Below are positions 3,240-26,349 of a stretch of DNA of 64,000 nt, in pieces; position 1 is the stretch's first letter; every line of letters begins with the position of its first letter. Source of the stretch: Escherichia coli (lineage in GTDB: Bacteria; Pseudomonadota; Gammaproteobacteria; Enterobacterales; Enterobacteriaceae); assembly GCF_044324785.1 (NCBI RefSeq), contig NZ_CP172127.1. The stretch is one strand, 5' to 3'. The translations under genes were made by a program, and so were the position numbers. The notes beneath the pieces are model-generated. The model was not told the origin of the DNA, did no database searches, and worked only from the letters and a program-made list of their open reading frames with translations.

Positions 3240-4796
3240 ATGACCAGTCTTCAGCAGCGCGCGGAGCTTCATCGCCAAATCTGGCAAATTGCTAACGATG
3301 TCAGAGGTTCGGTCGATGGATGGGACTTTAAGCAATACGTTCTGGGCGCGCTTTTCTACCGTTTTATCAGCGAAAATTTTTCCAGCTATATTGAAGCCGG
3401 TGATGACAGCATCTGTTATGCGAAACTGGATGACAGCGTAATTACTGATGACATTAAAGACGATGCCATCAAAACCAAAGGCTACTTCATCTACCCAAGT
3501 CAGCTTTTCTGCAACGTAGCTGCGAAAGCAAATACCAATGACAGACTGAATGCAGATTTAAACAGCATCTTCGTTGCTATCGAAAGTTCTGCTTACGGTT
3601 ACCCTTCAGAAGCTGACATCAAAGGTTTGTTTGCTGATTTCGATACCACCAGTAACCGCCTGGGTAACACCGTTAAGGATAAAAATGCCCGCCTGGCCGC
3701 GGTTCTGAAAGGGGTTGAAGGATTAAAACTTGGTGACTTCAACGAACATCAGATTGACCTGTTCGGCGATGCCTATGAGTTCCTGATTTCTAACTATGCG
3801 GCGAATGCTGGTAAGTCAGGCGGCGAGTTCTTTACACCGCAGCACGTCTCTAAGCTGATTGCACAACTGGCTATGCACGGGCAGACCCACGTTAACAAAA
3901 TCTACGACCCGGCAGCAGGTTCCGGTTCGCTGTTGTTGCAGGCTAAAAAACAGTTCGATGACCACATCATCGAAGAAGGCTTTTTCGGTCAGGAAATCAA
4001 CCATACGACCTATAACCTGGCGCGTATGAACATGTTTTTGCACAACATCAACTACGACAAGTTTGATATCAAGCTGGGCAATACGCTGACTGAGCCGCAC
4101 TTCAGAGATGAAAAACCGTTTGATGCCATCGTTTCTAACCCACCGTATTCGGTGAAATGGATTGGCAGCGATGATCCGACGCTGATTAACGATGAGCGTT
4201 TTGCCCCAGCTGGCGTCCTGGCCCCCAAATCAAAAGCTGACTTCGCGTTTGTATTACATGCGCTGAACTATCTTTCTGCCAAAGGTCGTGCTGCGATTGT
4301 CTGCTTCCCGGGCATTTTTTACCGTGGCGGCGCGGAGCAGAAAATCCGTCAGTATCTGGTTGACAATAACTATGTCGAAACCGTGATTTCACTCGCACCG
4401 AACCTGTTCTTTGGCACCACCATTGCCGTAAATATTCTGGTGCTGTCTAAACATAAAACGGATACCAAAGTTCAGTTTATTGACGCCAGCGAACTGTTCA
4501 AAAAAGAGACTAACAACAACATCCTGACCGATGCCCATATAGAAAAAATTATGCAGGTATTTGCCAGCAAGGAAGATGTTGCTCATCTGGCGAAATCTGT
4601 TGCGTTTGAGACTGTTGTCGCGAATGACTATAACCTGTCGGTGAGCAGCTATGTGGAAGCGAAAGATAACCGCGAAATTATCGATATCGGTGAGCTGAAT
4701 GCTGAGCTGAAAACCACGGTCAGCAAAATCGACCAGTTGCGCAAAGATATTGATGCGATTGTGGCTGAAATTGAAGGCTGCGAGGTGCAGAAATGA
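3240..4796 (+). CDS. hsdM: Type I restriction-modification system methyltransferase subunit HsdM (type IC-like, EcoR124/Ecoprr family)
   Basis: 518-aa ORF with AAGGA ribosome-binding site; N6-adenine methyltransferase motif NPPY ([11 protein letters not shown]) and AdoMet motif DPAAGSGSL. Gene order M-S-R with hsdS starting inside the hsdM stop (ATGA) matches type IC organisation. Confidence 0.9.
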
Positions 4797-5962
4797 GCGA
4801 GATGAGTTATCTGGAAAAATTGCTGGATGGAGTTAAGGTTGAGTGGAAAACACTAGGGAAAGTGCTTAAACGAACTAAAGGCACAAAAATAACCGCTGGG
4901 CAGATGAAAGCTCTTCACAAAGATAATGCGCCGCTTAAAATTTTTGCAGGAGGAAAAACAGTAGCCTTTGTTGACTTTAAAGATATACCAGAGAAAGATA
5001 TTAATAGAGAGCCATCGATTATTGTTAAATCCAGAGGTATTATCGAATTCGAGTATTACGATAAACCATTCTCTCACAAAAATGAGATGTGGTCATATCA
5101 CTCAAATAATGATGCGATAAGCATAAAGTATATTTATTACTTCCTAAAAATAAATGAAGGATATTTCCAGAAAATTGGGGGTAAAATGCAAATGCCACAA
5201 ATTGCAACTCCTGATACAGATAAGTTTGAAGTTCCAATCCCTTGCCCGGATAATCCGGAAAAATCCCTTGCCATCCAGTCTGAAATCGTTCGGATTCTGG
5301 ACAAATTTACTACACTTACCGCTGAGCTTACCGCTGAGCTTACCGCTGAGCTTAACATGCGTAAAAAACAGTACAATTACTATCGCGACCAGTTGTTGAG
5401 TTTTAAAGAGGGTGAGGTTGAGTGGAAGACTTTGGGGGAAGTGGCTCAGTTTAAGCGAGGAACGGCAATTACCCAAAAACAGACAACACCAGGTGAAATA
5501 CCAGTAGTTGCCAATGGACCAATTCCTACTTATTTTCATAGCGAGAGCAACAGACAAGGTGAAACAATCGTTATAGCCAGATCTGGTGCCTATGCAGGAT
5601 ATGTCAGTTTCTGGAATCAGCCAATATTTTTAACCGATGCCTTTAGTGTTCATTCCGACTTAAAAATTGTAAAACCAAAGTTTATTTACCACGTGCTACA
5701 AAATAAACAAGAGCACATCCATGCAATGAAAAAAGGTGCGGGTGTGCCTCATGTCCGAGTTAAAGAGTTTGAAACCTATGATATACCTATACCTCCTATC
5801 ACCGAACAAGAGCGTATTGTTTCTATACTCGATAAATTCGACACCCTGACCAACTCCATCACCGAAGGTCTTCCGCGTGAAATCGAGTTGCGCCAGAAAC
5901 AATACGAGTACTATCGTGATTTACTGTTCAGTTTCCCAAAACCTGAAACTCTCAGTAATTAA
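4793..5962 (+). CDS. hsdS: Type I specificity subunit HsdS (type IC-like) with central TAEL x3 repeat
   Basis: 389 aa; two variable target-recognition regions flank a conserved central region containing [13 protein letters not shown], and a related conserved C-terminal repeat ([14 protein letters not shown] versus [14 protein letters not shown]), as in EcoR124-type HsdS. Confidence 0.9.
5318..5353 (+). repeat. Three perfect tandem copies of a 12-bp unit (ACCGCTGAGCTT) inside hsdS, encoding [12 protein letters not shown]
   Basis: Read directly: accgctgagctt x3, in frame with hsdS. Confidence 0.95.
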
Positions 5963-25174: not shown

Positions 25175-26349
25175 GTTGGCCGATGGTGAAGTTAGGCGAA
25201 ATTTTTACTATATCTCGAGGGGGGTCTCCAAGACCTATTCAAGATTATATTACTGACTCCTGTCATGGAGTAAATTGGATAATGATTGGTGATACTGAGC
25301 CAAATTCAAAATACATTAGACATACAGCAAAAAAAATAAAGTTTGAAGGAGTGAAAAAATCCAGAAAGGTCTACCCTGGAGATTTATTACTTACAAACTC
25401 TATGAGTTTTGGGCGTCCATATATACTTGATGTTGAAGGATGTATACATGATGGATGGTTGGTTCTAAGTCCTAAAAATAATCAAATACATATTGATTAT
25501 TTTTATCATTATTTAAATTCTCCAGCTGCAAAAATCATCATATCAAACAAGGCTGCTGGTGCAGTTGTAAAAAATTTGAACTCAGATATCGTGAGAAACT
25601 TGGAAATTCCGTTCCCTCCATTTGCGGAACAGGTAAGGATAGCTTCAACTCTCGATAAAGTCGATGGCATACGTCAAAAACGCGACCAAGCCATCAAACT
25701 GGCTGATGATTTTTTGCGTGCTACGTTTTTAGCGATGTTTGGTGATCCTGTTGAAAACCCGAAGAGATGGGATGTTGCTTCTTTGTTAGAATATGGTTCA
25801 TTTAAAAATGGAATGAATTTTACGAAAGGTGAGTCAGGCTCTGTACTGAAGTGCCTGGGAGTTGGCAATTTCAAATCACTAGCAACGATTACCTGTATGG
25901 ACAATATCGGTGAAATTGAATTAAATACTCTCCCTTCAGATGATTATCTTTTGAAAGATGGTGATATCGTCTTTGTCCGTTCTAATGGTAATAAAGCCTT
26001 GGTCGGAAGATGTCTTACTATTTATCCAGGCAAAGAGAAAGTTACATTTAGTGGATTTTGTATCCGCTACAGAATAGAAAATACTGCAATCACCCCAGAA
26101 TATCTTAACTTTCTCTTCCGTACACCTTCAATGAAACAGCAAATGTTAAGCGGGGGGCAAGGAGCGAATATTCAGAATATTAGCCAAGGTACCTTATCCG
26201 CACTCAGGATACCAGTCCCTCCCTTAGAAAAACAACAGGCATTTTCTAAAGTAGTGAGTTTTCACTCGGCACTAATGGAAAAACTAGATATTAATACAGT
26301 TGAAATAGAAGATATGTTTGACTCAATCAGTCAACAATATTTTAATTAA
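25171..26349 (+). CDS. hsdS: Type I specificity subunit HsdS (second system)
   Basis: 392 aa; start overlaps the hsdM stop (GTG at 25171, or ATG at 25183); two AT-rich variable regions plus conserved HsdS helices. Confidence 0.85.
   Translation: MSWPMVKLGEIFTISRGGSPRPIQDYITDSCHGVNWIMIGDTEPNSKYIRHTAKKIKFEGVKKSRKVYPGDLLLTNSMSFGRPYILDVEGCIHDGWLVLSPKNNQIHIDYFYHYLNSPAAKIIISNKAAGAVVKNLNSDIVRNLEIPFPPFAEQVRIASTLDKVDGIRQKRDQAIKLADDFLRATFLAMFGDPVENPKRWDVASLLEYGSFKNGMNFTKGESGSVLKCLGVGNFKSLATITCMDNIGEIELNTLPSDDYLLKDGDIVFVRSNGNKALVGRCLTIYPGKEKVTFSGFCIRYRIENTAITPEYLNFLFRTPSMKQQMLSGGQGANIQNISQGTLSALRIPVPPLEKQQAFSKVVSFHSALMEKLDINTVEIEDMFDSISQQYFN

Follow-up and report, generated by a model that had tools for sequence, protein, structure and literature searches.

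Two sets of genes for type I restriction-modification (R-M) systems stand close together in a 64,000-nucleotide stretch of Escherichia coli DNA (contig NZ_CP172127.1, assembly GCF_044324785.1; hereafter the window), which raises the questions of whether both are complete, whether they belong to different families and would act independently, and how they came to be neighbours. System 1 is ordered hsdM-hsdS-hsdR (positions 3240-9200) and System 2 hsdR-hsdM-hsdS (20063-26349), with a total span of 23.1 kb. The window very probably represents a leuX defence hotspot that holds two independent, apparently functional type I R-M systems delivered by two mobile elements. By sequence comparison, System 2 falls outside types IA, IB and IC and the presumed type ID (for which a stand-in was compared); it is closest to type IA in architecture and lies at an inter-family distance from it.

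The leuX gene, which encodes tRNA-Leu(CAA) and serves as the integration site, lies at 34642-34726 on the minus strand (located with ARAGORN), and core genome of E. coli (97-99% identity; nearest strain N3, 99.1%) fills the right half of the window. The leuX site is known as 'hotspot 37'; no other defence island of E. coli is so heavily occupied, and type I systems of several families, including IC, are reported there; type IC never occurs in the immigration control region (ICR) (PMC12707154).

Integrity of the two gene sets

All six open reading frames (ORFs) are assigned to type I R-M subunits by Pfam and NCBIfam with E-values from 1e-28 to 1e-226, and for ORFs of 390-1137 codons with such scores chance is no issue. 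The six frames are full length with zero internal stops, which settles the worry about hidden frameshifts expressed in a first-pass annotation of this DNA and upholds its description of two complete, differently ordered systems. Pfam, NCBIfam, PADLOC and sequence motifs agree that both loci have the general make-up of a type I R-M system, namely R, M and S subunits with the expected domains. HsdM carries the motifs DPAAGSG and NPPY in System 1 (HsdM1) and DPACGTG and NPPF in System 2 (HsdM2), whilst HsdR carries GSGKT and DECH in System 1 (HsdR1) and GTGKT, DESH, TAT and QMIGRGTR in System 2 (HsdR2), the latter also with a D...EAK nuclease motif. In each system hsdM and hsdS overlap by 4 nt. 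Inverted repeats of at least 40 nt, as a sign of phase-variable hsdS inversion, were not found in window positions 1-36000.

System 1 belongs to the EcoR124 family

On every feature that sequence can address, System 1 is a type IC system of the EcoR124 family, in agreement with the earlier assignment. The genes follow the hsdM-hsdS-hsdR order, HsdS1 contains three TAEL repeats, HsdR1 has an EcoR124_C domain, and HsdM1 and HsdR1 are near-identical to EcoR124 chains in the PDB, above the >90% identity to the prototype that marks type IC membership. HsdM1 differs from the EcoR124II M chain (7bst_D) at ~5 of 518 residues (~99% identity). HsdR1 aligns with EcoR124 HsdR (2w00_A) over all 1038 residues (2253 bits); read off the printed alignment, the identity is ~97-98%.

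HsdS1 matches EcoR124 HsdS in its conserved regions (N-terminal, central and C-terminal), whereas the target recognition domains (TRDs) differ. According to the published repeat rule, three TAEL repeats, as in EcoR124II, give an N7 spacer (PMC10030836, PMC3874165), which suggests that the System 1 target also has an N7 spacer. TRD1 of HsdS1 is 100% identical to that of strain ECO8855, with a different TRD2; this strain and a second relative, Z1323HEC0067, have two TAEL units, against three here, and other TRD2 alleles. Since these relatives have two repeats, and one of them has the same TRD1 with another TRD2, the locus is diversifying by both classic type IC routes, TRD exchange and change of repeat number (three versus two TAEL), and offers a view of type I specificity in the course of change.

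System 2 lies at an inter-family distance from the lettered families compared

Type I families are defined by >90% identity of HsdR and HsdM together with complementation, and identities between families are 17-33% (PMC5399793, PMC2481252). HsdR2 is 26% identical (189 bits) and HsdM2 28% identical to the EcoKI (type IA) proteins, which bears out the earlier remark that the HsdM of System 2 is unlike that of EcoKI. Against the CFT073 (type IB) proteins the values are 26% (131 bits) and 28% respectively. To give the scale, types IA and IB are 27% identical to each other in HsdR (163 bits) and 29% in HsdM. The CFT073 proteins are a valid IB reference: they share 99% identity with EcoAO83I, and EcoAO83I shares 99%/98% with EcoAI (PMC2481252). 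System 2 falls short both of >90% identity to EcoKI or EcoBI, as type IA membership would entail, and of the same level for type IB.

Profile searches give a similar picture. System 2 misses the NCBIfam EcoKI-type model NF008521 (333 bits, cut-off 729) and the EcoAI model NF046051 (231.6 bits, cut-off 550). Among the PADLOC REase_I models, HsdR2 falls in one of its own (PDLC03047, full length, 909 bits) and scores 127 and 124 bits on the other two; EcoKI HsdR is assigned to PDLC03042 and CFT073 HsdR to PDLC03049.

According to Pfam, HsdR2 consists of an N-terminal DUF4145 extension, an HSDR_N PD-(D/E)xK nuclease, a ResIII/helicase motor and an EcoEI_R_C tail. System 2 shares the type IA organisation, with the R-M-S order, a terminator after hsdR, an extended HsdR and an HsdS made up of TRD1-CR1-TRD2-CR2 (CR, conserved region), a resemblance that is organisational only. 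The order and the terminator between hsdR and hsdM had both been described before; the order is as stated, and the hairpin, whose 8-bp stem contains 6 G-C pairs and is followed by a weak T run, is terminator-like by pattern match only.

The earlier suggestion that System 2 is probably of type IB or ID does not survive these comparisons. Apart from the 26% and 28% identities to the EcoAI-type proteins and the low EcoAI model score, System 2 departs from the type IB rule of a short HsdM paired with a long HsdS whose conserved regions are extended (PMC3510504), its HsdM and HsdS having 544 and 392 aa versus 489 and 589 aa in CFT073. For type ID, the comparison used a stand-in, the third hsd family of the ICR as present in strain MSB1_8B, rather than a StySBLI, EcoR9I or KpnAI prototype; the locus was found by BLAST with a 70-codon hsdR remnant of strain SMS-3-5 (locus L015, 17836-18045). 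The MSB1_8B locus (L016, NZ_LR890536.1, 11237-18744) encodes an Mrr-like endonuclease, HsdM (539 aa), HsdS (436 aa) and HsdR (1087 aa), in the M-S-R order, with a T1RH-like_C domain in HsdR, and lies between BrnA/yjiA and symE. HsdR2 matches its HsdR in short helicase motifs only (E 1e-4), without global similarity, and HsdM2 is 22% identical to its HsdM. An ID allele would be expected in the ICR, whereas the islands that carry the examined System 2 homologues have an integrase and sit at leuX or selC. In the ICRs sampled, hsd genes are missing from E. coli W, HS and SE11, where only penicillin acylase is present, and Sakai and CFT073 have type IB systems.

As for type IE, hsdM of KpnBI is reportedly 2631 bp long (877 aa), compared with 544 aa for HsdM2, and the PADLOC MTase_I models with 810-932 positions score HsdM2 at no more than 124 bits, as opposed to 637 bits on its own model. 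No lettered type I family beyond IE was found in the literature searched. We lean slightly towards the view that System 2 represents a sixth, as yet unlettered complementation family of EcoKI-like design, resident on leuX and selC islands and overlooked as a generic helicase, in which case strains taken to be 'restriction-minus', the industrial E. coli W for one, would have an active type I system. The expectation that the two systems belong to different families stands, with System 1 in IC and System 2 outside it.

Distribution of the System 2 family

HsdR and HsdM proteins 98-99% identical to those of System 2 occur in strains W, IrN and SCU-152, where HsdS is 34-64% identical and its TRDs are shuffled, and the system is present in 428 of 5426 complete E. 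coli genomes (~8%). HsdM2 has relatives at 97% identity in Salmonella (a cluster with 1265 member sequences) and down to 60-70% in Vibrio, Aeromonas, Shewanella and betaproteobacteria; Vibrio harveyi and Deefgea have the same gene order (R-M-S) and HsdR architecture, and there too the locus neighbours integrase or relaxase genes. In W, IrN and 2013C-4282 the system sits on the same island backbone, and in SCU-152 at selC. From these alignments System 2 appears to be a separate and widespread family with conserved R and M and variable S.

HsdS2 is itself a mosaic: its TRD1 is 98.5% and its central region 92% identical to E. coli W, whilst TRD2 is 93% identical to strain 2013C-4282 and 89% to SCU-152. 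A recombinant of this kind predicts a hybrid target, with one half-site from each parent type.

E. coli W (locus L001, NC_017664.1, 12004-18290) has an intact System 2 homologue at leuX, with HsdR 99.3% and HsdM 98.5% identical, and its genome paper calls the strain restriction-minus, a statement made from gene content and with no assay (PMC3032704). The PGAP/RefSeq name of the HsdR2 homologue is 'DEAD/DEAH box helicase family protein' only. Nothing relevant to restriction in W was found in one E. coli W engineering paper. A common, under-annotated family outside the lettered families tested is a modest point of interest, and it may explain unexpected restriction in strains thought to be hsd-less, E. 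coli W among them.

A gene with WYL and helix-turn-helix (HTH) domains (18804-19574, minus strand) is divergent from hsdR2 across a 488-nt gap. W, IrN and 2013C-4282 retain this gene in their leuX islands; the selC copy of SCU-152 lacks it, as do the Vibrio and Deefgea loci. Its product could be a BrxR-like regulator of island cargo.

Serial insertion at leuX

The island that carries System 2 and Dsr1 occupies 9442-34641 (25.2 kb) and has a P4-type integrase. Leftward from leuX it encodes the integrase, an HNH endonuclease, a 5'-nucleotidase, Dsr1, a 228-aa ORF and hsdS-hsdM-hsdR, followed further left by the WYL regulator, a GTPase and the series DUF932-RadC-YeeU-CbtA-DUF4942-AbiEi-AbiEii. 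At the island's distal end stands an 18-nt remnant of the leuX 3' end that lacks one base and was located as a fuzzy match to the tRNA gene.

Window positions 9190-9441 align almost base for base with the spacer between hsdR and leuX in ECO8855, and homology ends exactly there; many further genomes match positions 8700-9441 and then stop. In ECO8855 and Z1323HEC0067 the type IC system lies directly against an intact leuX, without an integrase, and is followed by DUF4942. The leuX remnant, the break in homology and the position of the type IC system beside intact leuX in these relatives together argue that the 25.2-kb island entered leuX in a strain already holding the type IC remnant, which it displaced. 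The tandem junction itself was found in 0 of 5426 complete genomes. Read in this manner, the window is a clean case of a tRNA hotspot gathering defence by serial integration.

The leuX island of strain N3 (NZ_CP031609.1) is wholly different, with a type II Zorya system and a large helicase/methyltransferase cluster that includes an STY4851/ECs_5259 family protein. That the closest core relative has a different leuX island points to fast turnover of the hotspot.

Predicted independence and activity of the two systems

HsdR1 and HsdR2 are 25% identical over 212 residues and HsdM1 and HsdM2 24% identical, in partial alignments, and the C-terminal assembly domains of HsdR differ, being EcoR124_C in System 1 and EcoEI_R_C in System 2. 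Low R and M identity combined with different domain architectures means that subunit exchange is not expected, and membership of different families makes independent specificities a reasonable expectation. In the proposed mechanism, each system would assemble its own M2S methyltransferase and R2M2S endonuclease, and would methylate two adenines in its own bipartite target. At unmethylated targets the endonuclease would pull in DNA at the expense of ATP and cut it at a distance. The outcome would be two separate N6-methyladenine (m6A) patterns and two restriction specificities in one cell.

Restriction by types IA and IB is controlled through ClpXP degradation of HsdR, whereas type IC uses an assembly-based mechanism (PMC12707154). 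Going by these published controls, the two systems may also be restrained by different means when they enter a new host.

Two independent m6A patterns and two barriers to incoming DNA are predicted for this strain, and the same 34 kb also holds McrBC-like, Dsr1, AbiE and phosphorothioate-sensing modules. Such a defence load matters for transformation, phage susceptibility and gene flow.

Alternative readings

A number of observations weigh against a separate family for System 2 or against two active systems. System 2 could belong, as a diverged member, to one of the lettered families (IA, IB, ID or IE), which we regard as quite unlikely. HsdR2 has the same domain set as EcoKI HsdR (DUF4145, HSDR_N, ResIII and EcoEI_R_C), and the PADLOC MTase_I model on which HsdM2 scores 637 bits, PDLC03021, is a broad one that IB HsdM matches at 711 bits. 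The published table for hotspot 37 places all of its type I systems in IA-ID (3+7+4+3 = 17%), with no remainder and no 'other' category (PMC12707154), so the authors of that review presumably applied looser criteria and counted System-2-like loci under one of the letters. Lactococcal systems complement each other at ~40% identity (PMC2481252), so sequence distance alone is no proof of non-complementation. The separateness of System 2 is drawn from comparison with IA, IB, IC and the ID stand-in. The MSB1_8B locus is itself presumably type ID, a reading adopted because the ICR is reported to hold only IA, IB and ID, the last accompanied by brnAT (PMC12707154). On the other side, the 26-28% identity to IA and IB falls within the range published for different families, IA and IB are just as far apart from each other, the NCBIfam cut-offs are missed and HsdR2 has a REase_I model of its own. 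Type IB membership is further opposed by an HsdM that is not short and an HsdS that is not long, and type ID membership by the lack of global HsdR similarity to the third ICR family. That System 2 is a defence machine of another sort, MADS-like or helicase-based for example, built from type I components, is highly improbable: the PGAP label of HsdR2 names a helicase only, and HsdM2 and HsdS2 have weak matches to MADS2 and MADS5 (117 and 66 bits), but these scores are far under the cut-offs of 720 and 400. Three genes and no more make up the locus, with the canonical hsdM/hsdS overlap, full type I domains, a PD-(D/E)xK nuclease and full-length PADLOC type I matches, and this module stands alone in differing contexts. 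An assignment of System 2 as a MADS or BREX-type module was tried and rejected on scores far below cut-offs.

A further alternative is that only one of the systems, or neither, is active, the other being transcriptionally silent, held in check by a regulator or disabled by substitutions that spare the reading frame. No sigma-70-like promoter was found in the 63-nt gap directly upstream of hsdM2, the WYL-domain regulator gene is divergently placed upstream of hsdR2, System 1 lies within a decayed, integrase-less element, and E. coli W, with its System 2 homologue, has been called restriction-minus from gene content (PMC3032704). Silence is nevertheless unlikely, given six full-length frames with every catalytic motif and given that in both families R and M are 98-99% conserved among strains whilst S varies by TRD exchange or repeat number; conserved R and M with diversifying S is the signature of selection for function. 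The presence of two independent and probably active systems, with System 2 in a family of its own, accordingly remains the preferred reading of the locus.

Gene content of the window

The features of the two elements are collected in Table 1.

Table 1. Features of the two defence elements at leuX, by position in the window
Feature	Position	Strand	Description
McrB-family AAA GTPase gene (type IV restriction)	1-1742	-	N-terminal 580 codons, 3' end cut off; Pfam AAA_5
DUF4942 gene	2100-2933	-	Pfam 1e-70; end-of-island marker of older element
hsdM1	3240-4796	+	type IC methyltransferase, 518 aa; TIGR00497 651 bits
hsdS1	4793-5962	+	389 aa; two Methylase_S domains
TAEL repeats	5318-5353	+	ACCGCTGAGCTT x3; HsdS1 residues 176-187
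hsdR1	6084-9200	+	1038 aa; HSDR_N, SWI2_SNF2, T1R_D3-like and EcoR124_C domains
leuX 3'-end remnant	9423-9441	+	TGTGGTGC-GAAGGCCGGAC; distal attachment-site copy, junction of two elements
AbiEii/AbiEi toxin-antitoxin pair	9620-11024	-	Pfam AbiEii, DUF6088/AbiEi_4; island's distal end; also in E. coli W
second DUF4942 gene	11025-11882	-	part of 25.2-kb island
hsdR2	20063-23476	+	1137 aa; ORF opens one codon earlier, TTG at 20060
terminator-like hairpin	23489-23508	+	AAGCCCCGGCAGCGGGGCTT then TTGTATTT; pattern match only
hsdM2	23540-25174	+	544 aa; HsdM_N and N6_Mtase
hsdS2	25171-26349	+	392 aa, GTG start; two Methylase_S domains from residue 3
phosphorothioate-DNA-binding HNH endonuclease gene	32082-33002		on System 2 island
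P4-type tyrosine integrase gene	33173-34519	-	Arm-DNA-bind_3, Phage_int_M and Phage_integrase domains

The earlier statement that no mrr or mcrC accompanies the systems within the window is misleading, as a gene of the McrB family is cut by the left edge of the window. Its product is 99.8% identical to residues 1-580 of a 684-aa McrB family protein of Z1323HEC0067, in which a McrC family gene lies downstream, and by this homology System 1 appears to be accompanied by a McrBC-like type IV system that the window truncates. In the closest relatives the McrB gene is followed by a McrC-family gene, another phosphorothioate-DNA-binding endonuclease gene and then nanS.

The 3' ends of the two DUF4942 genes form a 300-nt direct repeat (2070-2369 and 10995-11294, 97% identical). 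Its two copies flank System 1, the leuX remnant and AbiE, and a single homologous recombination event between them would remove the entire type IC system (8.9 kb).

The cargo of the younger island at 27098-33002 comprises Dsr1 (NCBIfam 1670 bits, full length), the 5'-nucleotidase (PADLOC candidate PDC-S08) and the HNH endonuclease, and the slot between hsdS2 and the 5'-nucleotidase gene holds different genes in W, 2013C-4282 and IrN. The 228-aa ORF (26371-27057, plus strand), which starts 21 nt past hsdS2, has hydrophobic N-terminal segments and no match in Pfam, NCBIfam or PADLOC, and ends at a strong 15-bp hairpin (27062-27094) shared with the convergent dsr1. Since it is also found beside Dsr1 in IrN, whose hsdS allele differs, this ORF may be a partner of Dsr1 and not of the R-M system.

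Comparison with known systems

System 1 shares with EcoR124I and EcoR124II of plasmid R124 the M-S-R order, subunits of 518 and 1038 aa and near-identical HsdM and HsdR, with three TAEL repeats as in EcoR124II and conserved HsdS regions as in EcoR124. It differs in being chromosomal, beside leuX, and in both TRDs, so its target sequence would also be different.

System 2 resembles EcoKI of K-12 in the R-M-S order, the hairpin after hsdR and the 4-nt hsdM/hsdS overlap. In both systems HsdR is long, extended at its N-terminus by a DUF4145-type region and ending in EcoEI_R_C, and HsdS opens directly with TRD1. The hairpin after hsdR in EcoKI accompanies separate promoters for hsdR and hsdMS (PMC12707154). 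In contrast to EcoKI, System 2 lies on tRNA-integrating islands (leuX or selC), outside the ICR. With the EcoAI family, represented by the ICR systems of CFT073 and O157 Sakai, it shares the R-M-S order, the EcoEI_R_C tail and the broad HsdM profile PDLC03021, and the best PDB match of HsdR2 is the IB-like Vibrio vulnificus HsdR 3h1t (PMC2777439); the IB HsdR, however, has 810 aa and lacks the N-terminal extension.

The younger island has the same integrase-to-AbiE backbone as WpLE3 of E. coli W, which is at leuX, and the islands of IrN and 2013C-4282, with HsdR and HsdM 98.5-99.3% identical. It differs from WpLE3 in the HsdS allele and in the cargo after hsdS, which is the 228-aa ORF and Dsr1 here, as in IrN; the next element has its own integrase in W and is an integrase-less type IC/McrBC remnant here. 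Leaving the family of System 2 aside, two type I systems at leuX are an ordinary feature of a known defence hotspot. The window has the leuX anchor and the P4-type integrase in common with hotspot 37, from which it shows no difference in kind, and adds one further configuration, two type I systems in tandem.

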